From a virus (taxonomy: Duplodnaviria > Heunggongvirae > Uroviricota > Caudoviricetes): a DNA stretch of 48,701 nucleotides. Below the pieces are notes generated by a model. That model had not been told where the DNA came from. It saw nothing but the letters and a program-made list of their open reading frames with translations, and did no database searches. Below are positions 4,160 through 47,219 of this stretch, in pieces; within the stretch, counting starts at the first letter, position 1; each line of letters opens with the position of its first letter. The stretch lies in the IMG/VR virus record IMGVR_UViG_3300046460_000418; one strand, given 5' to 3'. Position numbers and translations under genes: made by a program.

Positions 4160-6448
4160 TCAGTCGGGCTGTTCGTCCTCGTCGGGATATGAGGCGGGTG
4201 TTCCCTCATCGGCGGCGGGCTGTATGCCTTCTTCGGAGCTTTGTTCTGCTGGTCGTTGTTGTGTTGGCTCACGAGGTTCCTCTCCTTCTCTTATGATTTC
4301 GACCACGTCCCCGTTGGGGTCGACCTGGCCGGTCAAACGGTCAGCCGTAATGGTGGTCGCACCAGGCGGCAGCGTAAAGTCAGAAAACTCTATCATGCCT
4401 TCGGAGCGGTCGAGAATACGCCGAACAACAGGAGCGACGGTCTCACCACCGGCAGCACCTTTATGGAGTGGGCGATAGTCGTCATGGCCAAGCCAGGACA
4501 CGATCACATATTTCGGACCAAAGGCGGCAAACCAGACATCTCGCGATCCATTCGTCGTCCCGGTCTTGGCAGCTATCGGATGCTTGAAGCCGGAAAATGC
4601 ACGGCTGGCCGTACCTGCATAGGTGACGCCTTCGAGGATCGAGGATAGCTGCGCGACAGCAACAGGATCGAAGTTGACGCCGGGATCGCTATGCACTGGC
4701 ATATTGTGCTTGAAGAAGCTTGCCCGGACCGGTTGACCGCCATTGGCGATTGCCGAATAGGCTACAGCGACATTGAGCGGCGACATTTCGACCGTTCCAA
4801 GCGCCATCGCGTAGGTGGCCTTCTCGGGCATCTGGAGGCCGACCTTGACGGCAGTCTCTCGAACCTTCTCCTCCCCCACATCGTAAAGAAGGCGGACGGT
4901 GGCGTGGTTGCGCGACTTCTCCAGCGCCCGGCGTAGCGTGATCAGTCCGAGACCCTTTTCATTCTGCTGGGGCCGCCAAACGGGAGCGCCGTCACCGCTG
5001 TCCAATTCGATGGGGCTGTCGAGAACGGGAGACATGGCATTGTAGCCCATCTCAAGGGCCGTCAGATAGACGAATGGCTTGAAAACCGATCCTGGCTGCC
5101 GCTTGGCTTGGGTCGCGCGGTTGAACTCGCTCTGTTCGGAACTGAACCCGCCGTCCATTGCCATGACGGTCCCGGTCGTCGGCTCCATCACGACGACAGC
5201 GCCCTGAACGTCCGGGACCTGCAGGATTTCCAGTCCGTCACCAATATCACCGACCAACACGGCATCGCCCAGTCTGATCAAGGACGATGCCTTGCGACCT
5301 GTCCAGGAAAGAGAGTTGATAGGCACAGAGACGACACCAGTTTCCGTTTCAAGCGCGATGGCTTTGCTAAGGCTGCGAACGACAGCAACCTTCCAGCTCT
5401 CTGCACCGGCCGGGGACTTGAGGCGATCATCATCCCAGTCGATGGAACCGGAGATGCCGCGAGCCAAAGTGCCGTGCCAACCGGTCTTCCGGTCTTCCAT
5501 CACCAGACCTCGGCGCAATTCCTCGTGAACTACCTTTTGCAGTGGGGCCTTGAGGGTTGTCTTCAGATCGCCACCATCGCTGTAGAACTTGTCAGAGCCC
5601 ACTTCAGCGATCTGAAGTCGTCGGACAGCTTCTTCGGCATAGCCATAGGCAGGGTCGCTGATCCCGGAAACCGGATCGGAACCCTTGGCCGTCACGAGCG
5701 GCAGGCCGCGATACCTGGCAGCGTCTTCCGGTGTGACATAACCAAGCTTCGCCATACGGTCGAGAACGTAATTGCGGCGCTCGGTGGCCTTACCGATGTT
5801 GGAGAACGGGTTCCCGGCAGATGGAGCCTGCGGGAGTCCGGCAAGCACAGCCGCTTCGCTTGGCGTCAGCTGATCGAGTTGCTTGCCGAAGTAGCGGTTC
5901 GCAGCTGCTTTGACGCCATAGACGCCCGACCCCAAGTAGATTTCATTCAGGTAGATTTCGAGAATTCGATCCTTGCCGATCTCTTTATCGATCTTCAGCG
6001 CCAGCAGCGCTTCCTGAATCTTTCGCTTCATCGTGCGTTCAGGGGTGAGAACGACGTTCTTGATCACCTGCTGATCAATTGTCGAACCGCCACTGATGCG
6101 GCCACCCTTGAGATTGGAAATGAAGGCCCGAGCGACGCCGACAGGATCGACGCCCTTGTGCTTCCAGAAATTTCCGTCTTCCGCCGAAAGGAAAGCAGCG
6201 ATGACAAGGGGCGGAATTTGATCGAGGGCAACGAATTCCCGGTATTCCTTCGCATGCACCCCAAGGACCGTACCGTCGTCGCCCAGGATGCGGCTGCCCT
6301 CTTTCGGCTGCCATTGACCGATCTTGCTGATGTCGGGCAAATCCTTCGACATTTCCTTGACGTAGGAAAGTGTGATCGACGCGCCAAGGATCGATGAGAC
6401 GACAGCCAGCACTGCTGTCCCTGACAGGATAGTTTTTGGAAGGCTCAT
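4160..6448 (-). CDS. mrcA: Class A penicillin-binding protein (PBP1A family, transglycosylase + transpeptidase)
   Basis: N-terminal TM; GT51 motifs AEDGNF, GGSTIDQQVIKN, RKIQE; transpeptidase SVFK, SRN, KTGT. Confidence 0.93.
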   Translation of the reverse strand: MSLPKTILSGTAVLAVVSSILGASITLSYVKEMSKDLPDISKIGQWQPKEGSRILGDDGTVLGVHAKEYREFVALDQIPPLVIAAFLSAEDGNFWKHKGVDPVGVARAFISNLKGGRISGGSTIDQQVIKNVVLTPERTMKRKIQEALLALKIDKEIGKDRILEIYLNEIYLGSGVYGVKAAANRYFGKQLDQLTPSEAAVLAGLPQAPSAGNPFSNIGKATERRNYVLDRMAKLGYVTPEDAARYRGLPLVTAKGSDPVSGISDPAYGYAEEAVRRLQIAEVGSDKFYSDGGDLKTTLKAPLQKVVHEELRRGLVMEDRKTGWHGTLARGISGSIDWDDDRLKSPAGAESWKVAVVRSLSKAIALETETGVVSVPINSLSWTGRKASSLIRLGDAVLVGDIGDGLEILQVPDVQGAVVVMEPTTGTVMAMDGGFSSEQSEFNRATQAKRQPGSVFKPFVYLTALEMGYNAMSPVLDSPIELDSGDGAPVWRPQQNEKGLGLITLRRALEKSRNHATVRLLYDVGEEKVRETAVKVGLQMPEKATYAMALGTVEMSPLNVAVAYSAIANGGQPVRASFFKHNMPVHSDPGVNFDPVAVAQLSSILEGVTYAGTASRAFSGFKHPIAAKTGTTNGSRDVWFAAFGPKYVIVSWLGHDDYRPLHKGAAGGETVAPVVRRILDRSEGMIEFSDFTLPPGATTITADRLTGQVDPNGDVVEIIREGEEPREPTQQRPAEQSSEEGIQPAADEGTPASYPDEDEQPD

Positions 6449-8030: not shown

Positions 8031-8107
8031 GGGTGCTTAGCTCAGTTGGTTAGAGCATCGGCCTTTTAAGCCGAGGGTCCAGGGTTCGAGCCCCTGAGCA
8101 CCTACCA
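8031..8107 (+). tRNA. tRNA-Lys(UUU)
   Basis: Canonical cloverleaf, anticodon arm TCGGC-CTTTTAA-GCCGA, GGTTCGAGCCC T-arm, encoded CCA. Confidence 0.95.
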
Positions 8108-8123
8108 TCGTTTTCAAGGAAAT

Positions 8124-8201
8124 GGGTGCCTGCCTGGAAGTGGGAATCAGGGCTGCCTCTTAAGCAGCGACATGTCGGTTCGATCCCGACGGCACTCACC
8201 A
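8124..8201 (+). tRNA. tRNA-Lys(CUU)
   Basis: Acceptor GGGTGCC/GGCACTC, anticodon arm GCTGC-CTCTTAA-GCAGC, T-arm GTCGG-TTCGATC-CCGAC, ACCA end; atypical D-arm. Confidence 0.88.
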
Positions 8202-8217
8202 TCCTTCCCTAATTCGA

Positions 8218-8304
8218 GAGAGTATGACCGGAGCGGCGACTGGTGCGGCCTTTTAAGCCGTTTGCGAAAGCACAACGTGGGTTCGAGTCCCACTGCTCTC
8301 ACCA
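8218..8304 (+). tRNA. tRNA with UUU (Lys) anticodon and long variable arm (class II body)
   Basis: Acceptor GAGAGTA/TGCTCTC, D-stem ACCG/TGGT, GCGGC-CTTTTAA-GCCGT, variable hairpin TGC-GAAA-GCA, T-arm GTGGG-TTCGAGT-CCCAC, ACCA. Confidence 0.85.
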
Positions 8305-12683: not shown

Positions 12684-14324
12684 TTATGAGCGTTCGAACA
12701 ACTTCGCGAGTTGCTCGTGCGTCAGGAAAGCGATGGTTGGACGGCCATGGTTGCATTGAGAAGCATTTGGTGTGGCCTCGATTTCCCGGAGCAACTGAGC
12801 CCCACGCTCGGGCGTGAGTGTGTTTCCTGCCTTGATGGCTGCCTTGCAGGCAGCCGTGGCCAGACGCTCCCACAAGGCATCCTCCATCAGCCCTGAGACA
12901 CTTCCTGTCGAGCAATGCTCGATAATGAGGTCAAGCAACTGCTCGTGCGCGATACCTGAAAGAACGGCGGGGATCGTATTGAGGGTAACCGAGCGAATGT
13001 CGGTCGCCATTCCAAAACCCAATGATCCCAAAACACTTTCACAATCCGCGACTGCGGCTGCAATCTCGGCACCGACCGGGCGTTGAACTGAAAGAGCAAG
13101 CCTGGTAATTTCGTCCGGAAATCCCGCAGCGGCCTTTTTCAGCCGTTCGAGAATGACCCGTTCATGTGCCGCATGTTGGTCGATGATGACCATCCCCTCT
13201 GCCGTCTCACCCAGGAGCCAGGACGAGTGCAATTGCGCCACATACCGGCCGAGAGGCAGTCGACGAGGGTCAGACAGTGTCGCTTCATTGACGTTGGCCA
13301 GATCACGGGCAAGATTTGCAATGCTTGACGGCGAGCGAAGTCCGCTTTGCGATAGAGCGAGCGAGACGGCTTGGCGGAGTGCTTCAGCCACATTGACGCC
13401 TTCGCGAAAGCGGACTTCGGCTTTCGTAGGATGGACGTTAAGGTTGACCATGCGCGGGTCGAGACTGACGTAAAGAGTGGCAAATGGTCGGGTGGCGGTG
13501 CCAGTAAGGTTCTTGTAGACCGACTGCACCGTCGCGGTCAGGCTCCGATCCTGGATCAGCCGCCCGTTGACGATGATATCGAGGTGACCGCTTCCGGCAT
13601 TATCCATCACGGTCGGCAGGGAGATCAGGCCGCAGACCCGGATTGTCCCGTCATCATGGGAGACTCGAATGCCATTTTTGCTGAGCGGCTCGCCACGGAC
13701 TTCCCGAATGCGAGACGCTTCATCCGGTTGCGCCCGGTATGTCGTCACTTGATTGCCATTCCGCAATGTGAACCGAACGCCAGGATGCGCGAGCGCAATC
13801 GCATCGAGGACGGACAACACCTGTGCGAATTCTCTTTTGAAGCTCTTCAGGAACGCTTTGCGGGCAGGGTGAGCGTCAAACAGTCCTTCGATCTCTACTC
13901 TGGTGCCAAAGCCACCTGCAGACGGCATGACCTTGCTCGCCACTCCATCAACAATCCTGGAAATGAATGCCACGTCCTGATCGGCTGGCCGAGACACAAT
14001 GGTCAGGTTCGCCATCTTCGCGATTGAGGGCAGCGCTTCGCCGCGAAAACCAAGGGTCTGGACGTTGAAGATGTCGTCAGTGACAAGTTTCGATGTCGCA
14101 TGGTTCAAATGTGCAAGCGCAAGGTCTTGCGGGTTCATGCCACGGCCGTTGTCGGCAACGATTATCCGGGTCAGCTGCTTGTTCTGGAATGTGATGTCGA
14201 TGCTGGTGGCCCCGGCATCCAGGGCATTGTCGAGAAGCTCCCTGACAACGGAAGCGGGACGTTCGATAACTTCTCCAGCCGCGATCATGGCCGAGATGTG
14301 TGGAGGAAGAACACGGATGCTCAT
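12684..14324 (-). CDS. mutL: DNA mismatch repair protein MutL (with C-terminal endonuclease motifs)
   Basis: AAGEVIERPASVVRELLDNALDAGAT, DNGRGM, LGFRGEAL, NVHPTKAEVRF, DQHAAHERVILE, ACKAAIK, CNHGRP. Confidence 0.96.
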   Translation of the reverse strand: MSIRVLPPHISAMIAAGEVIERPASVVRELLDNALDAGATSIDITFQNKQLTRIIVADNGRGMNPQDLALAHLNHATSKLVTDDIFNVQTLGFRGEALPSIAKMANLTIVSRPADQDVAFISRIVDGVASKVMPSAGGFGTRVEIEGLFDAHPARKAFLKSFKREFAQVLSVLDAIALAHPGVRFTLRNGNQVTTYRAQPDEASRIREVRGEPLSKNGIRVSHDDGTIRVCGLISLPTVMDNAGSGHLDIIVNGRLIQDRSLTATVQSVYKNLTGTATRPFATLYVSLDPRMVNLNVHPTKAEVRFREGVNVAEALRQAVSLALSQSGLRSPSSIANLARDLANVNEATLSDPRRLPLGRYVAQLHSSWLLGETAEGMVIIDQHAAHERVILERLKKAAAGFPDEITRLALSVQRPVGAEIAAAVADCESVLGSLGFGMATDIRSVTLNTIPAVLSGIAHEQLLDLIIEHCSTGSVSGLMEDALWERLATAACKAAIKAGNTLTPERGAQLLREIEATPNASQCNHGRPTIAFLTHEQLAKLFERS

Positions 14325-20373: not shown

Positions 20374-21219
20374 TTAGATCGTGATGGCAGTAGCAAACGG
20401 TCGGTCGGCGACCCTGGGCGTTGCGTTGTTGAAGACGAACTCAGTCAAATTCTCAAGCACAGCCAGAGCAGGCATGTTTGGAACACGATCAATGGTCATC
20501 GTCATGACCGGCTTTTTCGGACGATACTCCTCAGGGATTCTTGCGAGCACCTCGGGATCGAGCGGACGTTCGATTCGATAGCGCCGCACGAAGCTGCCGC
20601 GCCGGACATGTTCCGGCAAGGCATCGAAGTCGATGCCCTTGGTGGCCAGCATGGCTTTGCGGTCCACGCTCGACTTTCCGCTGAGATCATTGGCGGCGAA
20701 GTGCTTGAGGGCAACCGCCTCAACAGTCGACTTACGCGCAATGGTTTCGCGCCATAGAAAGAATTTCGCGGCCACTTCCTCGCTCGGAAAGGCAAAGGAC
20801 CGAGCAATGAACTGCGGGAGCACCAGCTTGTTGTTCGGATCACGGAACATGGCGGGGAAACGTTGATGGGCGAAATGAACGACCGCTGCCGACAAGGTCG
20901 ACGCAACCGATACCGACATATCGCCATGACTGCCCATTGATTTCCGCTGGCTGTCCCTGAAGCGCATCAAAAGCGAAACCTCGCTCGCGTGGCTGTATGT
21001 GATGAGCCCGGAGTAGCTCTCAATCAGGTGCTTGGTCGCATCGATGATGACGTCAGTGAACGCGGCGCGGTTCTCCGGAGCCAGAGAGCTGATGATTTTC
21101 TGCAGGTTCTGGCCTTCGAGATGAACGATAACTGGCACTTCGTTCTCGATGGCAGTTGTTCTGTCATCGATCAAAAAGCGGGAGAGTGCTTGTCCGAGCC
21201 CGTCGCTAACAATTGCCAT
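20374..21219 (-). CDS. tRNA(His) guanylyltransferase Thg1-like protein with altered catalytic carboxylates
   Basis: VIVHLEG, YSHASEVSLL, PQFIARSF, FFLWRE, KGIDFDALPEHVRRGSF follow the Thg1/TLP layout. Confidence 0.75.
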   Translation of the reverse strand: MAIVSDGLGQALSRFLIDDRTTAIENEVPVIVHLEGQNLQKIISSLAPENRAAFTDVIIDATKHLIESYSGLITYSHASEVSLLMRFRDSQRKSMGSHGDMSVSVASTLSAAVVHFAHQRFPAMFRDPNNKLVLPQFIARSFAFPSEEVAAKFFLWRETIARKSTVEAVALKHFAANDLSGKSSVDRKAMLATKGIDFDALPEHVRRGSFVRRYRIERPLDPEVLARIPEEYRPKKPVMTMTIDRVPNMPALAVLENLTEFVFNNATPRVADRPFATAITI

Positions 21220-21237: not shown

Positions 21238-23127
21238 CTAATAAACATAAACGGTTGAACCCGCGTCCATTTCGAACGGGATATAATCCCGCTCAGCACC
21301 TGGACCAAGCCATTGATCCGGCGGCTGGGCGACACGTCCAGGAACATCCCTTCGGTGTCGATAGACCATGGAACGTAGATCGTTCCGCCCTCCCACGCCA
21401 TTCGCGACGAGCTTGGGTCGAAGGCGTTTCCGCTTCGACGGCCTATGCGCAGCATGCGCTCCGTTGAATGCGCGGCTGACCTCGCTCCATACCGACCATA
21501 CATGCCTCGACTTCGGAGCTTGCTCCGATTTTTCCTTCCTTACAGGTAGGTCAAGGGTGACAGGGTGGGCATTGTTGAGCGGGAGCGTGACTTTGCGCTC
21601 CTGATCAACTGAACGAGGCAATCGTTCACTCAGACCCATTGCCCTGCGGGCAATGGAAACAGCAGCGGCCGCGTGCACAGTGAGCCCGTAGCGGGCTGCA
21701 AACTTCGTGCGACCGATAATGGAGGTGTAAGCCGGGTTGACCCGGGCATGATAAACGCCTGAGCGTGCGCAGGCTGACGCAAGCGCTGCATCGAAGGCAG
21801 AATATGCGAAGGACGAAAGCATGCGAGCGTAACGTGGGCCGTCTTCGGCACTCAATCGGTCCTTTTTGCTGGAAAAGTCCAAACGCTCCGAGACGACGGG
21901 TAGATCATGCTCCGCAGCATATGCGGCAATCTTCGTGGCCGCTTTACGAAGCGCGTCACGGGATTGCTGCTCGCTCTTTCCGTAAGTCACACAAGGAATA
22001 TCGAAGCTCTCGACAACATTACCATGCAGGTCGATCCGGCTGACCGAAAAGAACCCGACGTTAACATCCACGCCGACCGCGCCAGACCGATAGTCGCGGA
22101 TTGCCTTCGGCGTAACCTGGTTGACCGTCACCATCAACTTCCACGACGTATCGTCGCGGTGAAAACGGACGCTGATCGGTTTCCTATCGTTTAATGCTTC
22201 TGCAATCGCGTCAGCGCCATGATGGAAAGATAGGCCTTTCAGCCTGACCGAGCGGATCGTTTTGCCTTTTGCAGCGACCGCCTTTGTGGCGAGCTGTTTC
22301 AGCGCCTCCGGCAGGCGCAACTCCAGATCAAGCAGACCATTTTTGGAAAGCTTTAGCCGAGCAAACGGATTGCCGCTTTCTACAGACGCATCACCTTCGA
22401 ACATAAAGGTTTTGAATCGAGACCATTTCCATTCTTCAAGCCAGGCGGAATGGCTGGGAATGTCATTGTCATCGAGATTAAATTGCTTTCGAAAACGCTT
22501 TTTCGAGCCGAAGCAGATTGAGGGATTGTCGATCTGCAATTCTGTCATCGCAAGCTTGTGACGGAGAATGTTCAGCTTGCGCATGTGCTGGTGAAGATCG
22601 CGCTTCAAACGCCTGACTAAAGTCATCGACGCGCCAAGTTTCAGTTCAGCCTTGTGGAACTTGTCGAAAGCCGTCTTCAACCGCGCCAGGATTTTGTCGC
22701 GCTGTGATGGTTTCGCCGAGTCCAGCTTCACTTTCAATTCGTCGATCAGTCTAGAAAGCTTATCGATCTTTCCAGCCAGCGTTTTCTGCTCTTTCCGCTG
22801 TGCACTGACCGTCTTTCGCTTGTTCGCGATCACGCCGATCTTCGCCTTGGTCTTCACATCCAGCTTATTTTTGCGCTGTTTTGCAAGCTCAGAGATCGAC
22901 GAGAGCTGGCCTTGTAAAGCGCGGTACGCATGAAGAAGATGTGTCGAGGTGATGTCAAAATCGCGGTATAAGCTTTTGTGCAGATCACCGGTCCAAACCC
23001 GACCTGACTGAAGTTTCGCATGAAGCGTTCGTTGGACTCGGTTCATCAGATCGGCATATGCATCGAGAACTGGCGCAAGGTCATCCTTGTCGCGAAAATC
23101 CAGTCGTGTCTCGAAAGTACGGATCAA
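21238..23127 (-). mobile_element. tnpB: Stand-alone IS200/IS605-family TnpB-like RNA-guided nuclease gene (629 aa, TTG start)
   Basis: RuvC-I GVDVN, RuvC-II VVSERLDF, VNPAYTS, RuvC-III region YGLTVHAAAAVSIARR; no tnpA in the window. Confidence 0.8.
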
Positions 23128-23219
23128 ACGAAATTACTCAATACAAACGTTCTTGCTACGTTCACAATACCGGTTTAGATGAATATGTCAACACTTCAAC
23201 CAGGTATGACCAACATCCC

Positions 23220-23717: not shown

Positions 23718-24215
23718 TTAGATTGAAAATCCCGAGGGTTCCAAGGCCGGTAATTCAATCCCAAATTCGGCCGCGATCATCGAAAGATTGATAATCGCCG
23801 CCACAGGAACTGTTGTCGTATAGGCAACCTGATTGCTGGTCGAAAGGCTCAATTCCCATGGAACGTCTTGCCAGCGCTTGAAAGGCCGGAGGCGTTCGTC
23901 GATCTCAAGGTCGGAGGGCTCGACACCCCGGGCATCGTCATCGATGTCTCCATGGATATCCTTGAGCCTGCCGACCAGGTCGTAGTCGTCGGGTTCGAGA
24001 TGGGACCGGTCGACCATATCCGGATCGATTTCAAGGACGACTGCACGACCGCCGCGCCGATCACAGCTCAACACCGAATATTCGTCCGCATGGTTTTCGC
24101 AGTCGGTCAGATAGATCGCCGTCCGTGTTTCATTGTCTGTAGAGACCTGCGGAACGAGGCCATCCCTGATGATCGCTTTCAGTCGCGCAGTCGTGGTGCC
24201 ATGGTAGAACTTCAT
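23718..24215 (-). CDS. ADP-ribosyltransferase-fold / Tpt1-KptA-like protein ending EPSGFSI
   Basis: MKFYHGT..AIIRDGL, AIYLTD..HADEY, VVLEID, VPVAAI resemble small HYx ART domains. Confidence 0.65.
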   Translation of the reverse strand: MKFYHGTTTARLKAIIRDGLVPQVSTDNETRTAIYLTDCENHADEYSVLSCDRRGGRAVVLEIDPDMVDRSHLEPDDYDLVGRLKDIHGDIDDDARGVEPSDLEIDERLRPFKRWQDVPWELSLSTSNQVAYTTTVPVAAIINLSMIAAEFGIELPALEPSGFSI

Positions 24216-24282
24216 GGAAATGTCTCATGGTCGTTTCGATCAGCTTGCACGATGAATCCGCAAATGCAAAAACGACTAGGTG

Positions 24283-24311
24283 TTGACATTTTCTAGATGG
24301 TATGGCGTTAT
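24283..24311 (+). promoter_or_regulatory. sigma70-type promoter for the metG leader (TTGACA-17-CGTTAT)
   Basis: TTGACA 24283-24288; candidate -10 at 24306-24311; leader ATG 6 nt downstream. Confidence 0.55.
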
Positions 24312-24317
24312 GACCAC

Positions 24318-24365
24318 ATGAACAAAGTGCTTTTGAACAATCAGGTGATGATGCGCCCCATTTAG
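24318..24365 (+). CDS. metG leader peptide MNKVLLNNQVMMRPI (tandem Met codons)
   Basis: ATG at 24318, ATG-ATG at 24348-24353, TAG at 24363-24365, followed by alternative hairpins and a terminator. Confidence 0.75.
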   Translation: MNKVLLNNQVMMRPI

Positions 24366-24403
24366 GGGTCGATCTTCTGTGCTCAAAGCTCAAGGAAGTC
24401 CAC

Positions 24404-24426
24404 CCCGCCACTCCGGCGGGTTTTTT
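24404..24426 (+). terminator. Attenuator terminator upstream of metG
   Basis: CCCGCC-ACTCC-GGCGGG followed by TTTTTT, 45 nt before the metG ATG. Confidence 0.85.
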
Positions 24427-24471
24427 ATTGCCATGGCCCGCCGTCCAACTTCATTGAAAAGGACCACGACC

Positions 24472-25986
24472 ATGACGAACACACTCTACCTCACGACGAC
24501 AATTCCCTACGTCAACGCCAGCCCGCATGTGGGCTTTGCACTCGAACTAATTCAAGCCGATGTCATTGCCAGGTCTCACCGCGAGCGCGGCTATGATGTC
24601 CGGCTGCAGACTGGCTCCGACGAAAACAGCTTGAAGAATGTCCAGGCGGCCGAGAAGGTTGGAAAGTCTACGGAAGAACTGGTCGCAGAGAATGCACAGC
24701 ACTTTCTCGCCCTGCAGCGGGCGCTTAACATCTCGGCTGATGATTTCATTCGCACCAGCACCGATCCGCGCCACCGGCCTGCCGTGGAAAAACTCTGGTA
24801 TCAATGCGAGGAGAGCGGCGATCTCTATCAGAAAACCTATTCCGGGCTTTATTGCACTGGTTGCGAGCAGTTCTATCAACCAGGAGAGCTGTCCTACGGC
24901 TGCTGCCCGGAACACGGTACCCATCCGGAAGAAGTAACGGAGACCAACTGGTTCTTTCGGCTGTCGCGCTACGGAGACAGGTTGAGGGAGCTGATCGAGA
25001 CCAGGGAGCTGGACATCACACCAGAAAGCAGACGCAACGAAGTCCTGGCATTGATCAGGGCAGGCCTGGAAGATTTCAGCGTCTCACGCAGCTCGACCAG
25101 AGCCAGAGGATGGGGCATCCCGGTCCCCGGCGATGCCGACCAGACGATCTACGTCTGGTATGACGCTCTCGGAAACTACCTAAGTGCCCTGGGGTATGGC
25201 TCGACGGATGTCGATGTGGATCGGTTCTGGAACAATGCCGAGCGGCGCGAACATCTGGTTGGGAAGGGCGTCACACGCTTTCATGCTGTCTATTGGCCCG
25301 CGATCTTGGTCTCAGCGGGCTTGCCATTGCCAACCCGTATTTACGTCCATGGTTATGTCACCGTCGATGGCCGAAAGATCGGCAAGTCGAACGGCAACGC
25401 GATTGACCCGGTGCCGCTTGTCGAGCGGTTCGGAGCTGATGCTGTGCGCTATTACCTCCTTCGCCATATCCGGGCAACGGAAGACGGCGACTTCACACTT
25501 GAGCGACTGGAGCAGGCTTACACCTCGGAACTGGCCGGGCAGCTCGGCAATCTTGCGCATCGACTGCTGGCGATCACCCAGAAGATCGACGGTCAACTAA
25601 TACTGAGCATAGCCAGCCTGGATCATGCAGAAGTCGAGGCCGTCCGTGAGCGAGTTGCCTATGCGGTTCAAAAAGGTGAATTTCATGAAGCTCTTGGCTC
25701 GATTTGGACTCTGGTTGCTTTCGCAAACAAACATGTCGCGGATCGGCAGCCCTGGGCAATTGTGAAAAAGATCAGCCAGGAAACCGATGAAAGGGAACGA
25801 TGGATTTTGCAAAAGGCTGCAAACGCCTGCCTCGGCGAGTTGCTTGGTCTCGTCAATGAGATTTCTTCCCTGCTCACACCCTTCCTGCCCGAAACAGCCG
25901 GTCGGCTCAAAGAGCAATTGGCGCGTGCTGTTGAAGGAGGGGAGGCCCGTGACAGCTTCCATCCTGTTTTCCCAAAGCTTGCGTAG
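24472..25986 (+). CDS. metG: Methionyl-tRNA synthetase (short form)
   Basis: YLTTTIPYVNASPHVGF (HIGH), TGSDE, CTGC..CPEH knuckle, YVWYDAL, GKGVTRFHAVYWP, KIGKS (KMSKS), LGNLAHR. Confidence 0.95.
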   Translation: MTNTLYLTTTIPYVNASPHVGFALELIQADVIARSHRERGYDVRLQTGSDENSLKNVQAAEKVGKSTEELVAENAQHFLALQRALNISADDFIRTSTDPRHRPAVEKLWYQCEESGDLYQKTYSGLYCTGCEQFYQPGELSYGCCPEHGTHPEEVTETNWFFRLSRYGDRLRELIETRELDITPESRRNEVLALIRAGLEDFSVSRSSTRARGWGIPVPGDADQTIYVWYDALGNYLSALGYGSTDVDVDRFWNNAERREHLVGKGVTRFHAVYWPAILVSAGLPLPTRIYVHGYVTVDGRKIGKSNGNAIDPVPLVERFGADAVRYYLLRHIRATEDGDFTLERLEQAYTSELAGQLGNLAHRLLAITQKIDGQLILSIASLDHAEVEAVRERVAYAVQKGEFHEALGSIWTLVAFANKHVADRQPWAIVKKISQETDERERWILQKAANACLGELLGLVNEISSLLTPFLPETAGRLKEQLARAVEGGEARDSFHPVFPKLA

Positions 25987-29722: not shown

Positions 29723-29748
29723 GCGGCGCTTCCTTGCTTCGTCTCAAT

Positions 29749-29798
29749 AATGTCAACATTACACAAAGAGGCGACTCACACAAAGAGAAATGTCAACA
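29749..29798. repeat. A-B-B-A arrangement of two 10-bp direct repeats
   Basis: AATGTCAACA at 29749 and 29789; ACACAAAGAG at 29761 and 29778. Confidence 0.7.
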
Positions 29799-29986
29799 CT
29801 TTCGCCATACGGCTCCCTTCTTCACGACGAAGGTTAACGCGAGGTAAACACGCTCCATCCATGCCTTCGACGTGTTGCAACAATCAAAATGGCGGCATTT
29901 GACGCCCATTTGGCCTTCTACCTGTCCCTGGCTTGTTGTCGGCAAAATCCCCGGTATATAAGGGGCTGGTTGAGGGAGTGGATGAC

Positions 29987-32291: not shown

Positions 32292-34448
32292 TTACAAGCT
32301 GCAGGAGACGCAACCCTGGACTTCCGTGCCTTCGAGCGAAGACTGACGGACGCGCCAGTAGTAGACGGTCTTGCAACCCTTGGCCTTGGCGTAAACCGTG
32401 GCGCGGGTCAGATCGCGAGTGGATGCCTTCTCGGTGACGAACAGTGTCAGGGACAGGCCCTGATCGACATGCTGACCAGCCTCGGCATAGGTGTCAATGA
32501 TCCGCTTCGGGCCGACATCAAACGCGCTCTCGTAATATTCGAGATTGTCGTTGGTCATGAACGGAGCCGGGTAATAGCAGCGACCGGTCTTGCCCTCCTT
32601 GCGGGTCTCGACCTTGTCGATGATCGGATGGATCGATGACGTCGAGTTGTTGATGTAGGAAATCGAGCCGGTCGGCGGGACAGCCTGAAGGTTCTGATTA
32701 TAGAGACCGAACTTCATGACGCTGGCCTTCAACTCCTGCCAGTCTTCCTGGGTCGGAATATGGATGCCTGCGTCGGAGAAGATTTTCTTGATCTTGTCGG
32801 TGCGCGGACGCCAGATGCCGTTCGTGTACTTGTCGAAATATTCGCCGGAAGCGTATTTCGAATTGCGGAAATTGCGGAAGGTTGTGCCGCGCTCCTTGGC
32901 GATCATGTTTGAGGCGCGGATGGCGTGGAACGTGACCGTGTAGAAGTACATGTTGGTGAAGTCCAGGCCTTCTTCCGAGCCGTAATAGATGCGCTCGCGA
33001 GCAAGGTAACCGTGCAAGTTCATGCCACCGAGACCGACCGCATGAGCACCTTCGTTGCCGTGGCGAACAGAGGGAACTTCTTCGATGCTGGACTGGTCGG
33101 ACACGGCTGTCAGGGCGCGGATCGAAGTTTCGATGGAGAGGCCGAAATTCGGGCTGTCCATGGTCTTGGCAATGTTCTGGGAGCCAAGGTTGCAGGAAAT
33201 GTCGATGCCGGTGACGTTGTGCGAGCCATCGCGATTGAAGGTGCTCGCGCTGTTGACCTGCAGGATTTCCGAGCAAAGGTTGCTCATGTTGATGCGACCC
33301 TCAATCGGGTTCGCACGGTTGGCGTTGTCTTCGAACAGCATGTAGGGATAGCCGCTCTCGAACTGCAGCTCATGCAGGGTTTCGAACAGCTTGCGAGCGC
33401 TGATCTTCGTCTTCTTGATCCGACGGTCATCGACCAGCGTGTAGTACATCTCCGTGATCGAAATGTCCGACATCGGCTTTCCGTAGACGCGCTCGATATC
33501 GTAAGGTGAGAACAGATACATATCCTCGTCCTTGGCAGCCAGTTCGAACGTGATGTCCGGAATGACGACGCCGAGCGACAGGCGCTTGATGCGGACCGCT
33601 TCGTCGGCATTTTCGCGCTTGGTATCGAGGAACTTCATGATGTCGGGATGGTGGACGTTGAGGTACACAGCGGCAGCGCCATCGCGGGCACCAAGCTGGT
33701 TGGCATAAGAGGAGTCGTTTTCAAAAATCTTCATGACCGGAACGACGCCCGATGCCTGGTTTTCGATGCGCTTGATCGGCGCGTACTGTTCGCGAAGGTT
33801 CGTCAGCAGGACGGCAACACCGCCACCGGCCTTCGATAGGTCGCGGACAGCATTCGAAGCTGCGTTGATCGACTTCATGGAGTCTTCGACGCGGATCAAG
33901 AAGCAGGAAACGAGTTCGCCGCGCTGCTTCTTGCCAGCGTTAAGGAAAGTTGGTGTCGCAGGCTGAAAGCGGCCGGAAATGATCTCTTCGACGAAGTTCT
34001 GCGCCAGGCGCTCATCGCCAGCGGCCAGTGCAAGAGCGACCATGCAGACGCGATCCTCAAACCGTTCCAGGTAACGCTTGCCGTCAAAAGTCTTGAGGGT
34101 GTAGGAGCGATAATATTTGAACGCGCCGAAGAACGTTTCGAAACGAAATTTCTTCGCATAAGCCTGCTTGAACAGCGACTTGATGAACGAAAAGGAATAC
34201 CGGTCAAGGACCTCCTGCTCGTAATATTGATTTTCGACCAGATAATCGAGCTTTTCCTTGAGGTCGTGGAAAAACATCGTGTTCTGATTGACGTGCTGAA
34301 GGAAATACTGGCGAGCAGCTTCCTTGTCAGCGTCGAACTGAATCTTGCCGTGCTCATCGAAGAGATTGAGCATTGCATTCAGTCCATGAAAGTCGAGGTC
34401 CATGCCGTCAAATCGGCTAGGCTGTTTTACTTTTCTTGCGAGTTCCAT
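32292..34448 (-). CDS. nrdE: Class Ib ribonucleotide reductase alpha subunit
   Basis: [46 protein letters not shown]-terminal CVSC. Confidence 0.97.
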
Positions 34449-37946: not shown

Positions 37947-38049
37947 ATTGGTCTGATAAATCAATGCTACCAGGAGGTAAAAGGAAACGCTTTGAAGTCG
38001 ATACGAATTGACGTTTTTTCGGCCGAACCCTACAGTAATCCTACATAAT

Positions 38050-41000
38050 ATGTGGGATTTACCTATGTTCAGGTCGGTGTTTGGGGCGAGCCTTATTCTT
38101 TTCAACTCTTTTTCCTTCGGCCAGGCCGCCAGCTTCGACAACGGTCAATATTTTTTCCGATACTCCACGAGCAGTGTCCAGAAGGGCGAGGACGACTCCG
38201 AAGCTTCGAAAGATATCACCGCTTTCTTTGCGGGCGGTGTCGGAATTGCTTTCTCTCAAAAAATCCCGATGCGCCCGGAATGGGAAAACGACAATTGGGT
38301 CCTTACCTCGGGCAAGCTACCTGCGGGGATTTCATTCGACAGTTCCACCGAGACATTTTCAGGGAAGCCGACGGCGGTCGTCAGCAACAGAGAAGTCGAG
38401 CTGGTCGGATATGACAAGTCCGGCTCCGAAGTTGCGACGGCAAGCGTCACCTTCGACATTCTCCAGCTTCCAATCGGTGCGACATTCCACGTCGATCTTT
38501 ATGCTCATACCGGCAAATACTCATTCAACCAGTTGGCGGTTCCGGCGGGCATTACGGTAGACAAGTGGACTGTACTTGACGCCCCGCCACCCGGCGTGAA
38601 CATTATCGGGCGAAATCTCGATGGGACACCGACCAAGCCAGGTACTTACCGATTGCTGATCCAGGGTTTGGATTTTCTTGGCAAACCAGTTGTGGCCTTT
38701 GTCGGCACTTTCACGGTCGAAGACGCGCCGGTCTTCCCGCTGGTAGCGGATAAGCTAATCAACACCGACCTGCAGTACCAGCCATCCGTAAGAGTTGATT
38801 TTGCGACCACGAAGGTCAAACGAGCTATCGGAAAGCCGCGTTATTATGTCGAGGTTGAAGGTGACAATCCTCTGCCGGGAAACCTCTACGTTACCAATGA
38901 TGTCTTCAACCCGCATGTTACCGGATACATTTTCAAGAACTATGACCAAGCGACGCTGCGCTACAAGGCTGTGGATTCCGACGAGACGGTAGCCTATTCG
39001 AATTGGTTCAAGGTCGGGACACTTGGCCCGGCACCGAATTGCGGAACCTATACAACGAACCCGGTCCCTATGAACCTGGACGGATATGTCGGAACCGCAT
39101 TCCCACCCTATTACATTCCAACGACGAATTCAGCCGGGAGCCGAACCTACGCCCTCGTAGATGGTCAATTGCCGAAGGGATTGTCGCTTGATGCAGCATC
39201 CGGTCTCATTTCTGGTACACCACAACAAGAAGAGACCCGTGAGGGGATCGCTGTCCGGATTGATGTCAGCAATAGCGGCAATGTCGACAGCACGACCTGC
39301 GGCCCCTACACATTTCGAATCAATCCTGCCCGGTTCGATCTGAGTGCCAGCGTCTCTCCGAAGGACTTCCATGTTGGAGGCGCTGTAACGGGCGTCTTGA
39401 AAACGTCCGGCGGAATATTGCCGGGCTGGTCAGTTGCTCTCGACAGCGCTTCCGCTCTTCCTAGCGGTGTGACTTTTGATAAGAACGCCTTGTCGTTTTC
39501 CGGCACTGTCAATGTGGCCGGAACATACCAGCCGACCTTCACCTTGACGAACGGAGACGGCAGGCAGGTGAAAGCCGCCACGACATTCATCGCAAGAGAG
39601 CAACTTGCATTAGGCGAGCCCGCCCTGAAATCAGTGGCTCAATTCGAGCTTCTGGACGATCTTGCGAGTGCAATCGTTGATGGCGACACGGTCGTCGGAG
39701 CTGCCAAGATGACCGTCGAGGGTGGTTCATTACCGCCAGGCATGTCTTTTGCATTTGACGGTGTAAAAGGTTCAATTTCAGGCGGAACCAAGCTATCACC
39801 ACAGTCCTTCGGTCCATACACGTTCAAGGTTACCGATGACGAGGGCCAGATCGCGAACTCCGCGCCATTCTACCTTCAGGTTACAGACCGCAAAGACTTG
39901 GTGGCATCCCAGCCCGTTTCGCCGAACTTTACGATCAAGAAGTTCTCAAGCCTCAAACCGGTCACGGTCGCGCTGCCACCATTGGGAGACAGCCTTGTTC
40001 TGAGCTATACGCTGAATGGTCCGGCTCTTCCCGAAGGCCTGACTTTCGACAAGGACACAGGCACAATCAGTGGCACTCCTTCGGCAAAGATCACGCTGAC
40101 GAATTACACGATAACTGTCACTGATGGGCAGAAATCAGTGACATCGGCACCATTTCCGGTGACCGTCGGTGATCCGGCTGCCATCCCGCCAATTATCCTC
40201 GGATCAATCACCAAGAATGTAACCGGCCAGGTCGTATCCTTTCTAACGACACCGGCCCCAGACCTCTCGACCGTAGCTGATTTCATGGTTGGCGACGTCA
40301 AGGACGCCAAATTCACCTCAATCACGCCGTCGGTTCCAGGTCTATTCCCAGAACTTTCAAATGGCACGCTCTCGGGCAATCCGACAACGCCATTCGATGG
40401 GGATGTATCGATCAGTTTCGAGGATAGCGCGGGACGGGAGGGTAAGGCGGTCGTGCATTTGATCATCTTGCCATATCCATCGATCAGCGTAGGCCAGGCA
40501 AGCTATTCACTGTCACGCCTTGCCGATGCGTCGAAAATTGGCTTTAACCTTTCACCCAATAACGGCTTTATCGGCTCGATCCAGTATAGTCTTGCAAGCG
40601 GCTCCAACCCTTTGCCATCCGGGATCACGCTTACCTCCCAGGGTACTCTGTCAGGATCAACCACCGTGAACCCGCAAACGTTCGGTGGGATTATTGTCAA
40701 CGCCAAGGACTTGAGCACCGGTATCGAGGTGCAATCCGGAGCCTTTGCCATCAAGATCGATGAGCAGACGGGGCTTACCCTGGCCCTTCCTCAAAAGCAG
40801 CTCACCTACCGTCTGTTCAATGGCACATTCGCTATTTCGTCAGCAGACGTCTTCAATCCGGCACCAGCACCGACCGGCTCGCGTGTCCAACCACTCAAGT
40901 GGTCCATCGACGATGACGGTGGTTCGGGTCTTTCCATTTCTTCATCCACCGGCCAGCTTACAGGCACGCCGGGGCGTCTTGGAAGCTGGCCAATTACGCT

Positions 41001-44000
41001 CCGCGTCACCGACTCTGACACGCCGCCGAGTTCCACTACCGATAATGTGACGGTAAAGGCGACCTTGCAGGGTTGGGTCGTCACTGAGCCAGGCGGACAA
41101 GCTATTGGACCATTGCGGGTTGGAGAAAGCTTTACCACTCTGTCCCAAACGCCTTCGAACTACGTTGGCAACCCGGTTTACAGCGATCTGAACAATACCG
41201 GCTTGTCACTCAATCCATCCACTGGTCAATTCAGCGGAAGCTTCGATGCGCCCGGAACGTCGACCTGGAAATTGCAGGTAACCGACAAAGATGGTCGCAC
41301 ACTGCAGAATCCGGCGACCTTCTCGGCGGACATAGTTGAGCCGCTACAATTTGATCAGAGTGGCACGCCAAGCACCGTCATCTCCAAGCAGTTCGACAGC
41401 GCTGCCCGCGTCACCATGCAATTCAAGCCTGCCACACATTCGATGGGGAAGGTCTCCTACGCCATTTCCGACAATCTTCCTGGCACACTGGTCTACAAAT
41501 TCTATCCCAATGATGATTTGTCGGCAAAGCCGGTCTTCTTTCATTACGATGCGCAAGGCAGTGCGATGGAACTTGCGGCGGATGCGCTGCCAGACGACGC
41601 ATTCGTCTTTGATACGGTGAACCTGACGCTGACAGGCGTTCCTTCAGCCTCAGGGTCGTTCGGGCAAATCTTCCTCTACGCCAGTGATGACCATCAGGAT
41701 GACTACCAGAGCCCGAACGACCCGACCCGCGTATCGAATAACACAGCCGTGGCTGGCCCCTTCACGATCAATGTGGCAGCTGCCGATGGTCTCGTCGCTT
41801 CAAATAATCTGAGCAGCGAGGTTATCTATCAGTACACAAGCCAACCGACGATCCGTTCGACTGTTCTGAACGGGGCTTATGGAAAACCGATAAAATTCGA
41901 GCGCAAAGCTGGAACATTACCAACGAACGTAACCGCGAACGGGTCCGGAAATATCCTGACCTATCAGGGTTATTCTACCGCAATCGGGACGCAATCGGGT
42001 ATTATCTACCAAGCGACCGACGCGGTCGGTCGCTCTATCGATCTTCCGGTCGTAAGTATCGAAACCAAGGCCCGTGAGCCACTCGTACTCGAAGCCTCCA
42101 GCAACCCGCAGGGTATGGTTGTTTTTGAGGACGACGCAAATTTGATCGTATCTGCGAAGAACGTTCCATTTGGCGGTTCCATCGCGAGCGACAAGTGGAC
42201 CCTCACCGGTCTTTCCAACCTCCCGGCGGGTGTGACCTCGCAGATCGAAAACGGCCATGTTTCCTTTTCCGGGACGGCCTCGGTCATCGGCACGTATAAG
42301 GATATCATTGTTTCCGCTGTCGACAGTCTCGGCGGATCGGCCTCTGTAAGCCTCACCTTCAAGGTGATTTCGAGCAGTGATCCGATTGAGGTCAATGTGT
42401 CGAACATCACGACAAAGGTCGGCATGCCAGTCAAGATGGAGCCTCCATTTGCGGCGGCACCGATTTCCACGGGCAATACCTATGGCACCATCCGGTTCTC
42501 GTCCGCAGATATAGCCACCCTGTTCCCAGGCGTGACGCTAGATTCCTCAACGGGTGCTTTGAGTGGTAGCCTTTCCTCTGTCCAGGAAAACACCTTCAAC
42601 CTGAAGGTCAATGACGGCACAAATCGCCTGACGTCAAAATCGGTGAAGATTTCGGTAATTCCGAACCTAAGGATTGTCGCTCCGACGCTAATCACGACCA
42701 CGCAGGGTGCTGACGCCAATGTGGCGGTCGATACCAGCTTCAATATTGGAACGGTCTCTTACGTCGGCAAGGGAACCTGGCCTGCCGGGTTGAGTGTCAA
42801 TCCTGCCACTGGCGCAATCAAGGGCTCGGCGGCGGCGAGCACCGGGACCTATCCCGGTCTCACCATCGAAGGTGTCGATGCATCTGGCGACCGTCAGTCG
42901 TCGAACGTGTTTTCGATCAAGGTCGATCCTATCGATGCCTTGCCCATCATTGCAAACGTCCCATTGAATAAATGGCCGTTCGGAACTGTCGAAATCCCGA
43001 TCCAGAACTTCACTTCAACCGTAACAGACAACGTCAAGGGTAAAGCCTGGCCGGGTCCGCTGACCTTTACGCTCAATCACGATATCGCAGATGCCGGACT
43101 GACCTTCGACAGCAAGCTCGGCGTGATCAGCGGCACGGCTACCAAGCCGTTCCTTTACAAGGACCTCATTGTCACTGTGAGGACTGAACGGGGGGACACG
43201 GTTTCGACTGCACCGTTCTGGTTCGGCGTCCAGCCGAAAGATGCCATCGTCATCGCAGCAGGCCAGAAGAGCCACTACACAGTCCGTGTAGGGTCGGGTT
43301 ACTCGACAGACCCGCTGATTTTTCTGAATACCTTTGGGAATGTCACGTTCACGAATGTCCAGGCATTGGTGAAACCGATCAATCCCACAAACGGCGTGTA
43401 CTCCGAAGCAACTGTCACGGCATCAAGCATGACAGGACAACCCCAGGGAGGCTGGCCGGAAGATGCGGTCGTGACCGACGAGTTCGGGCGCACCGGCACG
43501 TTCAGGACTTCCCTGGAGGTAGCTCCCGCAGTTACGCTCACGCCACCGGCAACGGTCTCGTTTGAGATTGCCTCGCCATCAAAGACCAGTGACAAGCCAG
43601 TTGTGGCTGGTGTTGTCGGGACACCAACCTGGTCGACGCAAGGCATGCCATCCTGGCTAACGTTCAATGCGGATGGATCATTCACCGGGAGTGCGCCGAC
43701 CGGCACGCCCGTCGGCGATGTGTCGTTCAGCGTCACCGTTACGGACCCCTCCGATGGTGCTTCGAAGACGGCTACCTATACGGCAAAGGTGTACACCATC
43801 AAATCCTATCGCGTGGTCCTAGACGCCTGGGTTGCGCACCCGACCATTGCAACATGTGTCGGCATGTCTGAGTTTTATGTGATGAACGGAACATCTGATA
43901 TCACGTCCCTTTCGGGCGTTGTTCCTTCATCATCAGACAAAGACTACCCAGCGAAGAACCTGACCGACGGAGTGGTCTCGACAGCTTCAATGTGGTTCCT

Positions 44001-44304: not shown

Positions 44305-44682
44305 CTACCGCATTCCAGGGGTAGACGGCTCATCATCAATCTCGATTTTACCGGTGACGATGTCGAGCACAAGCTTCTCTGCATCCTCGTAGAAGAGGTG
44401 CTGTTCACAAGCCCAGTCGATATACTCCCTATAGCTGCTGCCTTTGGCGGGTGGTGGTGATGACCACCTGTGCTCGGCCTGAGCTGCCGACTTGGCCACA
44501 ACTGGCTTCGCAGGGGCGACACGGGGTGGCGCTGCAGCAGGAACGGGAGGGCGTGTTGCCTGGACTTGCGGCCGAGGCGAGAACCCCGGTCGAGCGGGCG
44601 CACCGGGGCGAGCGGCAGGCGAAGGTGTGGGGGATGCGGTGTGCCCGGCGTTCGACTGCCCTCCACCAATCTTAAATGCCAT
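44305..44682 (-). CDS. Hypothetical protein, Pro/Ala-rich N-half, small C-terminal domain, ends DDEPSTPGMR
   Basis: Overlaps the CCA gene end by 11 bp, same strand. Confidence 0.65.
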   Translation of the reverse strand: MAFKIGGGQSNAGHTASPTPSPAARPGAPARPGFSPRPQVQATRPPVPAAAPPRVAPAKPVVAKSAAQAEHRWSSPPPAKGSSYREYIDWACEQHLFYEDAEKLVLDIVTGKIEIDDEPSTPGMR

Positions 44683-45853: not shown

Positions 45854-46331
45854 AGCGCTGCGCGAGCCCTTTCCTTGAGTTTCTTTTCCACCCAGAGGCG
45901 GAACACATCGTCTGCCTTCATATATTCCTGCAATTGAGCGGCCGACAGCTGCTCCGTGAGGAAGCATTGAAGAAGAAGATCGTAACGATTAACCACTGAG
46001 GCGACCCGATGCAAGGAAATTTGAAAAAAGGATGACAGGGTTCAACGAGAGAGAGAATAGCCGAGAAGACGTGACAAAGAAATGGCAGGCGTGATCGGGA
46101 CATGGTCCTGCACGATGGGCGACAATGTTGACGTTTGCCAACGCAGTTGCTAGGTTGTTGTGGTCGCTCTTAATGGGCGTGGATTGAAACAACGATGAGG
46201 GACGACATGTCTTTCGTGCTGAACATCGCTGTACGTGATGAACGTTCTGAAGAGGATATCTTCAGGCGGCGCTAGCGTATGCAGGGCCGCCAGAGAAGGC
46301 GGCCATCGTTGAAGATCGAAAAGATTTCACC

Positions 46332-46718: not shown

Positions 46719-46793
46719 GCCCCTATCGAATATGGGTTAGTTCAGCAGCTTTTCACGTTGCTAAAGAGAGTTCGAGTCTCTCTAGGGGTACCA
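46719..46793 (+). tRNA. tRNA-Glu(UUC)
   Basis: Acceptor GCCCCTA/TAGGGGT, GCAGC-TTTTCAC-GTTGC, GAGAG-TTCGAGT-CTCTC, ACCA. Confidence 0.85.
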
Positions 46794-46817
46794 TTCGTTT
46801 GGACATTTTTGAGAATT

Positions 46818-46894
46818 GGTGCTGTAGTTCAGCTGGTTAGAACATCCGCCTGTCACGCGGAAGGCCGAGGGTTCAAGTCCCTTCAGCATCGCCA
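46818..46894 (+). tRNA. tRNA-Asp(GUC)
   Basis: Canonical cloverleaf, TCCGC-CTGTCAC-GCGGA, GCCA end. Confidence 0.95.
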
Positions 46895-46911
46895 CAATTT
46901 GAAGAATACCT

Positions 46912-46990
46912 TGCGCCGCTTCCGTAGTGTTGTGGTGAAGCACCCGGGTCTCCCGGAGGGTCGAGTTCGAATCCGACCGGTTGCGGCGCA
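46912..46990 (+). ncRNA. tRNA-like RNA with collapsed anticodon arm and extended acceptor stem
   Basis: D-arm GTGT-TGTGGTGAA-GCAC, CCGGG-TCT-CCCGG, GTTCGAATC T-loop, TGCGCCGC/GCGGCGCA outer stem, no CCA. Confidence 0.6.
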
Positions 46991-47005
46991 AGGTAACGAA
47001 GGTCT

Positions 47006-47080: not shown

Positions 47081-47102
47081 AACCTTCAAGGAAATACTCG
47101 TG

Positions 47103-47215: not shown

Positions 47216-47219
47216 AGAA

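Follow-up and report, generated by a model that had tools for sequence, protein, structure and literature searches.

Leader-peptide attenuation is textbook knowledge for tryptophan, histidine, phenylalanine, leucine, threonine and isoleucine/valine, and for pheST. To our knowledge, methionine is missing from this textbook list and from Rfam. In Streptomyces, predicted attenuators precede trpS and leuS (PMC1262725), and an auxiliary, indolmycin-resistant tryptophanyl-tRNA synthetase (TrpRS) of Streptomyces coelicolor is reported to be under ribosome-mediated attenuation (Vecchione & Sello 2010, title cited in PMC4787780). In Sinorhizobium meliloti, trpL is a leaderless mRNA that begins with its own AUG (PMC10117765). 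Here, we analyzed the leader of metG, a gene for an accessory methionyl-tRNA synthetase (MetRS), in a 48,701-nt stretch of DNA, IMG/VR record IMGVR_UViG_3300046460_000418 (hereafter the window, whose coordinates are used throughout). Judged from its sequence, the leader is most likely a ribosome-mediated transcription attenuator that reads charged elongator tRNA-Met and controls the accessory metG. A first-pass annotation of the stretch had named no characterised Met leader peptide for metG; full-text literature searches likewise turned up neither a leader peptide with Met codons nor an attenuator of metG or metS.

Architecture of the metG leader

All elements of the leader lie on the plus strand. 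The putative promoter −35 box TTGACA (24283–24288) sits inside a conserved 14-nt motif, GTGTTGACATTTTC (24280–24293), and is followed after 17 nt by a putative −10 hexamer, CGTTAT (24306–24311), which was placed by conserved spacing and ends 6 nt before the start codon of a short upstream open reading frame (uORF). The uORF (24318–24365) comprises 15 codons and a stop, runs from ATG 24318 to TAG 24363–24365 and encodes the peptide MNKVLLNNQVMMRPI; its tandem Met codons ATG ATG (24348–24353), located three codons before the stop, are the proposed sensing codons. An in-frame ATG further upstream (24297) was rejected as the uORF start, as it lies within the promoter spacer and is unconserved.

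Strand 1, GCCCC (24355–24359), pairs with GGGGT (24365–24369) in a 1:2 hairpin that is present in the free-RNA fold. Strand 2, GGGGTCGATCTTCT (24365–24378), may take either strand 1 or strand 3 as its partner. Strand 3, GGAAGTCCACCCC (24394–24406), is the 3′ arm of the antiterminator, and its last three bases are shared with the start of the terminator stem; the 2:3 helix (24365–24378 with 24394–24406) is contained in the minimum-free-energy fold. Within the antiterminator loop, a small inner hairpin, GCT-CAA-AGC (24381–24389), folds with a loop that is variable among relatives. The intrinsic terminator (24404–24426) was detected by a terminator scan and consists of CCCGCC (24404–24409) and GGCGGG (24415–24420) around the loop ACTCC, followed by T6 (24421–24426); its stem is kept in relatives and its loop is variable. 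The −35 box, the uORF with its Met-Met pair, helices 1:2, 2:3 and 3:4, T6 and metG were all recovered, by sequence, scans and folds, where the first-pass annotation had placed them.

In the mechanism that we infer, transcription would begin at or next to A24318, and a ribosome would load on the leaderless mini-ORF. With ample Met-tRNA, the ribosome would reach TAG 24363–24365 and cover strand 2, the 3:4 terminator would form, and RNA polymerase would halt in T6, 45 nt before metG. With scarce Met-tRNA, the ribosome would wait at ATG ATG 24348–24353, covering strand 1 and leaving strand 2 free; the 2:3 helix would then form, take three terminator-stem bases and let the polymerase read into metG. 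If the ribosome were absent, 1:2 and 3:4 would form and transcription would stop. The inferred steps of this scheme are where transcription starts, that the uORF is translated and that it responds to Met-tRNA, and a MetRS inhibitor or a tRNA-cleaving toxin as its trigger is speculation.

Conservation of the leader among close and distant relatives

Four contigs carry close relatives of the locus, with a MetRS 88–95% identical and a leader 91–94% identical to those of the window. Identity to the window amounts to 90–93 of 99 positions from the Met codons to strand 5 (described below), 8–11 of 24 (33–46%) in the −35-to-ATG spacer and about 61% in the DNA upstream of the −35 box; the 14-nt −35 motif is 14/14 identical in L002–L005 although its flanks diverge. 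Pairing-compatible changes in the close relatives comprise T or C at 24378 opposite G24394, G or A at 24398 opposite T24373, and C to T at 24405 opposite G24419, while the terminator loop and one bulged base vary freely. The peptides of the window and these relatives are MNKVLLNNQVMMRPI, MNKEFLNNQNMMRPS and MNKELLNNQNMMRPS, each ending at its stop codon.

Of 20 relatives from the accessory MetRS clade, 19 show the same architecture ahead of metG; the uORF and helices of the first-pass annotation, the Met-run ORF included, are conserved in homologs. All clade genes retrieved with sufficient undamaged upstream DNA had a leader of this design, in an aberrant form in L101. Distant relatives with the leader have a MetRS 52–70% identical to the window’s. 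In type A (61–70%), the peptides, each followed by a stop, are MNTKRLNNQVMMRPS, MNRSNFFFAEMMMPPT, MNKTYFFSADMMMPPH, MNKSNFFFAEMMMPPA and MSNEIDIHKSMMRPC, the last being that of Rhizobium lentis and R. bangladeshense, where the neighbors of metG are ordinary metabolic genes. Type B (52%) has MHTNPINVTMMMLRS, MNSTFSTVEMMMPRL, MNRSFANSTMMMLRS and MNRSLANATMMMPRS, likewise stop-terminated, and is located on megaplasmids of Sinorhizobium sp. RAC02 and of Rhizobium spp. SSA_523, T136, CCGE532 and ACO-34A. Type C (56–57%) was found on the Neorhizobium petrolearium chromosome, in Chelativorans and in a Reyranellaceae metagenome-assembled genome; its uORFs are longer, with 25–26 codons in Neorhizobium and Chelativorans, and carry MM(M)PLS in mid-peptide. 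A Myxococcales relative has MSMPM. Met-Met is invariant across all aligned leaders; the peptides are otherwise divergent, and the sole feature common to types A–C is a run of two or three Met codons, which in types A and B is located three codons before the stop.

The spacing of the promoter is also kept. In type A, the −35 hexamer precedes the uORF ATG by 28–30 nt (17-nt spacer, 6-nt hexamer, 5–7 nt), and the type B layout is −35 box, 17 nt, 6 nt, 8 nt, ATG. From this spacing, transcription is expected to start on A24318 or just before it, and the uORF is probably leaderless, as had been proposed at first reading; the −35-to-ATG distance in both types and the precedent of S. meliloti trpL support this view.

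The extended −35 motif, GTGTTGACAT(T/A)TTC, recurs with 1–3 mismatches at 23181–23194 (−), 29786–29799 (−) and 29746–29759 (−), upstream of a TnpB-like gene and a 549-amino-acid gene. Eleven matches were counted at ≤3 mismatches, compared with 4.3 expected, and no shuffle reached 11; the motif may define an element-specific promoter class. In the MMMPP subgroup (L087, L095 and L097), the −35 box is directly preceded by a perfect palindrome (GGAGAGCATGATGCTCTCC-like) and a short additional ORF (L087 700–1200; upstream of the leader also in L095 and L097), which could represent an operator for an additional regulator.

The conservation pattern bears on a different view of the signal, in which the leader senses its nascent peptide or general translation stress rather than Met-tRNA, and throws the same RNA switch. 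A C-terminal MMRP, MMMPP, MMMLR, MMMPR or MMMPL would then stall the ribosome when an antibiotic or a metabolite is present or when elongation factor P is lacking, like tnaC or ermCL. Pro or Arg follows the Met run in most variants, Pro-Pro stands directly before the stop in one subgroup, and accessory synthetases are often drug-induced, for example the auxiliary TrpRS of Streptomyces (title cited in PMC4787780). However, it is the C-rich strand 1 that encodes the residues behind the Met run, so that RNA pairing can explain them, and they differ by type (RP, PP, LR, PR, PL). With peptides otherwise unconserved, the sole invariant is a run of codons for the amino acid of the regulated enzyme, as is classical for charging control. 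We consider a peptide or stress sensor improbable, and retain an attenuator that reads Met-tRNA.

Linkage to an accessory MetRS clade

The metG gene (24472–25986, plus strand) starts behind AAAGGA and encodes a 504-amino-acid accessory MetRS, recognized by Pfam and NCBIfam. With 399.6 bits against TIGR00398 (cut-off 336.35), the product is predicted to be a methionine--tRNA ligase. An alternative start, ATG 24433, was rejected, lacking a Shine-Dalgarno sequence, and relatives start at the downstream ATG.

The enzyme differs from the MetRS of its presumed host family. In Rhizobiaceae, MetRS matches occurred once per genome in 60 of the 61 sampled genomes and were 37–44% identical to the window enzyme. 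The whole leader-linked clade has the motifs H[VI]GF and KIGKS (HVGF and KIGKS in the window), as opposed to HIGH and KMSKS in 30/30 housekeeping Rhizobiaceae enzymes. In a maximum-likelihood tree, types A, B and C each received 98–100 support, and their union with the Myxococcales sequence 83–84; the leader-linked group is placed on a deep branch with actinomycete, Chloroflexota and candidate phyla radiation enzymes, far from the housekeeping alphaproteobacterial branch. The window MetRS thus appears to be an accessory enzyme, of a different clade from the host family’s housekeeping one.

To assess the specificity of this association, a detector was applied that calls a short ORF with in-frame ATGATG, then a hairpin and a T run, ahead of a gene, with distant MetRS matches from a protein scan of genome contigs serving as controls. 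The detector was positive in 17 of 18 loci of the leader-linked MetRS clade, in 0/30 housekeeping metG of Rhizobiaceae and in 1/76 metG from diverse phyla, the single positive being the Reyranellaceae locus; reverse-complement controls gave 0. In a relaxed form it was positive in 1/45, 0/30 and 0/30, flagging one Chloroflexota locus. The leader architecture is therefore, by sequence comparison, beyond chance and linked exclusively to the accessory MetRS clade. Searches with a pattern of terminator plus strand 5 gave 0 matches in metagenome contigs, and in 401 Rhizobiaceae genomes a single match, which lies within a coding region and is no leader. The covariance model R1 gave three weak matches in 151 genomes of Rhizobiaceae, all of them ordinary gene-end terminators. 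The leader appears to be rare among species representatives.

The leader-linked clade spans syntenic Rhizobium-associated elements, Rhizobiaceae megaplasmids, and chromosomes (Neorhizobium, Chelativorans and the Reyranellaceae genome), and the leader forms an Alphaproteobacteria-wide family; the leader–metG unit occurs in at least five unrelated genomic contexts. Taken together, tree, motifs and specificity indicate that the module is an accessory MetRS carrying its own regulator between replicons.

The same data address whether the leader could be an independent small gene, coding for a small RNA or a micro-protein with its own promoter and terminator, with metG transcribed from another promoter and uncontrolled. 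Promoter, 15-codon ORF and terminator do make up a complete small transcription unit, and S. meliloti offers a case in which the RNA and the peptide of a terminated trp attenuator act in trans (PMC6614838, PMC7298713). Yet the unit follows the MetRS clade in at least five unrelated contexts and precedes no housekeeping metG in the sets scanned. The 45 nt from the T tract to the metG ATG are conserved and pair with strand 4 and the initiation region, and the promoter scan found no second promoter between the T tract and metG. A role in trans would in any case supplement control in cis, not substitute for it. An independent gene is accordingly very improbable, and cis control of metG by the leader remains the preferred reading.

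Predicted structural switch

To model the effect of a translating ribosome, leaders were folded up to the end of strand 4 with all bases masked to 12 nt past the first base of the A-site codon. In free RNA, 1:2 and the terminator formed in 13/13 leaders, and a ribosome at the stop codon likewise gave the terminator in 13/13. With the ribosome at a Met codon, the minimum-free-energy fold contained the antiterminator in 9 of the 13 leaders, the window included. The window antiterminator reached −21.9 kcal/mol under the Met stall and captured three of the six bases of the terminator 5′ arm. The geometry of the window is compatible with this outcome: a stall at the Met codons masks to 24360–24363, strand 1 ending at 24359 and strand 2 starting at 24365, and a ribosome at TAG masks to 24375, i.e., most of strand 2. 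The Neorhizobium type C leader (L105) gave the antiterminator with the ribosome at Met and the terminator with the ribosome at the stop; its free fold contained 1:2 and lacked the simple terminator hairpin.

Strand 2 is complementary to both of its neighbors in all three types despite their different sequences. Strands 1, 2 and 3 read GCCCC, GGGG and CCCC in type A; GCTGCGCT, AGCGTGGCGG and CCGCC in type B; and GCCGCTTTCC, GGAAGCGGC and GTCGCTTCC in type C. This double complementarity between types is, as far as sequence can tell, the strongest structural argument available. In the type A strand 2 helix, 84% of cells pair, compared with 40–63% at slid registers. The trp-type 1:2/2:3/3:4 geometry proposed at the outset is in line with all three masking-fold states, and its topology is kept in types A–C. 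The accompanying expectation of helix covariation was borne out in part: competing pairings are kept across types, but double-sided covariation within type A amounted to zero pairs, the helices there being conserved in sequence. The evidence for the helices consists of compatible changes on one side of a pair, together with the comparison across types.

Several observations weigh against an attenuator of this kind. Beyond the missing double-sided pairs in type A, the comparison of helices between types cannot be aligned base by base, and RNAalifold on a mixed A+B alignment returned almost nothing, because types A and B are unalignable. Folded as a whole, the leader has an unremarkable energy (z = −0.69). 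Three type A leaders (L087, L095 and L097), and partly L093, keep the terminator under the stalled ribosome in the minimum-free-energy fold. A shuffled strand 2 still gave an invading helix in 11/300 cases for the window and in up to 50/300 for the relatives tested; the antiterminator alone is therefore modestly significant. The promoter scan made no call at this site, since the −10 hexamer is weak. This hexamer is also unconserved, the uORF has no Shine-Dalgarno sequence, and the window has two sensing codons only. Low MetRS activity would also lower the charging of initiator tRNA, so that initiation at the uORF could fail, leading to termination and not to read-through. Finally, L101 (Agrobacterium pusense plasmid pr1) has its uORF stop 12 codons further downstream and a weak or interrupted T tract. 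In another locus, L104 (Rhizobium sp. T1473 plasmid), the leader is missing and metG is truncated at its start by ~86 codons. L101 and L104 appear to be decaying or variant copies of the module.

An attenuator made of RNA only (a riboswitch or a tRNA- or protein-binding leader) with an incidental short ORF is hardly credible: S-adenosylmethionine (SAM)-II riboswitches do serve methionine genes in Alphaproteobacteria (PMC9373788) and the leader has a riboswitch-like terminator and alternative helix, but it has no Rfam match at gathering score, no relation to SAM or T-box families at E ≤ 10 and no conserved core resembling a ligand pocket, types A, B and C being wholly different in sequence, whereas the frame, the start, the Met run, the stop position (types A and B) and the promoter-to-ATG spacing are kept.

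A fifth strand and a possible translational tier

Downstream of the terminator, all leaders contain a copy of strand 3, here termed strand 5, 8–14 nt past the T tract. In the window, this putative anti-initiation segment occupies 24432–24446 (plus strand), and its core GGCCCGCC (24435–24442) pairs with strand 4 plus TT (24415–24422). Strand 5 reads GGCCCGCC in all type A leaders, is CCGCCTTGAGGG-like in type B and CCGCCTC in type C, changing in step with strand 4 in types B and C. The same segment has an alternative partner in the metG initiation region (24459–24474, plus strand), which contains the Shine-Dalgarno sequence AAGGAC and ATG 24472–24474: CATGG 24432–24436 pairs with CCATG 24470–24474, CG 24439–24440 with CG 24467–24468, and GTCC 24443–24446 with GGAC 24461–24464.

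The 4:5 duplex of the window has −17.7 kcal/mol, with 0/300 shuffles as good, and beats nearly all shuffles in 19/20 loci. The duplex of strand 5 with the initiation region has −14.9 kcal/mol in the window (3/300 shuffles) and −12 to −23 kcal/mol across loci, where it is among the best 5% of shuffles in 10/20; it shares bases with 4:5 in 19 of the 20 loci (≥9 nt in 18). When strand 4 is free, the metG AUG of the window has a predicted unpaired probability of 0.92; when the terminator holds strand 4, the predicted value is 0.00. This accessibility switch is strong in the window’s lineage and uneven across the family (Wilcoxon p = 0.06).

On this model, a second, translational tier acting via strand 5 may exist, and we give it slightly less than an even chance. 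Upon read-through, the freed strand 4 would pair with strand 5, leaving the metG Shine-Dalgarno sequence and AUG open. If the terminator formed and was leaked through, strand 5 would cover both, and there would be no translation. Only antiterminated transcripts would then be translated, strand 4 doubling as an anti-anti-initiation strand. If true, one ribosome stall would gate both transcription and translation of metG, and the strand 4:5 relay would be a simple coupling of the two levels of control.

The joint proposal, that the leader works as a switch of two tiers with a conformational memory and that the mobile MetRS is maybe a back-up rescuing translation under attack, is conceivable, though we regard it as rather unlikely. 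If it holds, the back-up MetRS would answer an attack on the housekeeping MetRS or on the charging of tRNA-Met; a natural inhibitor, or a weapon of host or phage origin, could be the attacker. Such a role would explain why a large mobile element rich in tRNA genes carries a MetRS.

Genomic setting of the element

The gene order UvrD, two small genes, metG, a DUF4139 protein, the 549-amino-acid protein and HNH is repeated on metagenome contigs. The UvrD-to-metG segment also occurs in Rhizobium sp. MHM7A, on a contig of 1.46 Mb, and in another assembly, on a 330-kb contig that has a giant immunoglobulin (Ig)-domain gene after metG. Given the gene order shared with Rhizobium sp. MHM7A and the metagenome contigs, the element, be it phage, plasmid or island, appears to live in Rhizobium-like hosts. 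With the queries used, no close relative of the element was found in phage records (blastn, tblastn) or in two IMG/VR scans; the best phage MetRS match in these searches was 38% identical to the window enzyme.

The window encodes seven tRNA genes (three tRNA-Lys, two tRNA-Glu and two tRNA-Asp), and tRNA functions are clustered around metG, at 8031–8304, 46719–47391, 20374–21219 (−) and 44672–45967 (−). The proteins of this set include a Thg1-like tRNA-His guanylyltransferase homologue (phrog_4717) and a CCA-adding enzyme. This concentration suggests an element equipped for the repair or replacement of host tRNA functions.

Further genes of the window encode UvrD, a TnpB-like protein and giant Ig-domain proteins. 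Some of the cargo is atypical for a mobile element: thymidylate synthase, a class A penicillin-binding protein, MutL, a class Ib-like ribonucleotide reductase and a 2069-amino-acid He_PIG Ig-domain protein (1026–2012, 4160–6448 (−), 12684–14324 (−), 32292–34448 (−) and 38008–44217). The 629-amino-acid protein at 21238–23127 (−) has a weak match to TnpB/RNA-guided endonucleases (NF040570, 35 bits, under the cut-off). The close relatives L002–L004 hold only a ~125-amino-acid gene at this place, and the 629-amino-acid gene looks like an insertion specific to the window’s element.

Comparison with known systems

No Rfam family matched the leader region (24150–24550) at gathering score, and across the whole window tRNAs only did so. 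The best sub-threshold match was Trp_leader RF00513 (19.8 bits against a gathering score of 41, E = 0.14), of which the leader is not a member. The metG leader nevertheless shares with E. coli trpL the four-strand design, a leader peptide of 14–15 codons, two adjacent sensing codons and an intrinsic terminator. The E. coli peptide ends in WWRTS before its stop, so that in both leaders the sensing codons are followed by three codons and the stop. E. coli trpL differs in sensing Trp, in controlling biosynthetic genes and in having a leader with a Shine-Dalgarno sequence, and the E. coli trp leader is not known to have a fifth strand that links to the ribosome-binding site downstream. E. coli pheM-pheST shares the placement of a leader-peptide attenuator with cognate codons ahead of a synthetase gene, for Phe and not Met.

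Two further systems resemble the locus in logic. The T-box-controlled thrZ of Bacillus subtilis is a spare synthetase gene induced by uncharged cognate tRNA; the sensor there is a tRNA-binding RNA, whereas here the ribosome would sense. TRAP sequesters the trpE Shine-Dalgarno sequence in read-through transcripts and thus provides a translational second tier; the sensor there is the TRAP protein, whereas the relay here would be strand 4:5 pairing.

Among the predicted attenuators of Streptomyces, those of trpS and leuS have the same placement and cognate codons, and differ in concerning Trp and Leu, and not Met or metG, in another phylum. The auxiliary TrpRS of S. coelicolor shares a divergent second synthetase that is silent and is induced through a leader peptide when cognate charging fails; it differs in concerning Trp in Actinomycetota, and drug resistance is shown for that enzyme. 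S. meliloti trpL/rnTrpL belongs to the same bacterial family and has a leaderless leader ORF for a 14-amino-acid peptide (PMC10117765), but senses Trp, controls trpE(G) and yields an RNA and a peptide with functions in trans.

Methionine is a special case, as the same enzyme charges the initiator tRNA that the leader ORF requires. Met-codon leaders in cultivable and tractable relatives of Rhizobium and Agrobacterium make the idea directly testable, and the leader could be a compact natural part that reports the charging of Met-tRNA. It also marks a mobile module of regulator and accessory MetRS, which moves among chromosomes, megaplasmids and a large element with many genes for tRNAs and tRNA repair. 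Compared with the systems above, what would be new is a Met-specific, probably leaderless attenuator within such a mobile accessory-MetRS module, possibly with a translational relay, while the design itself is of the known trp/pheST type.

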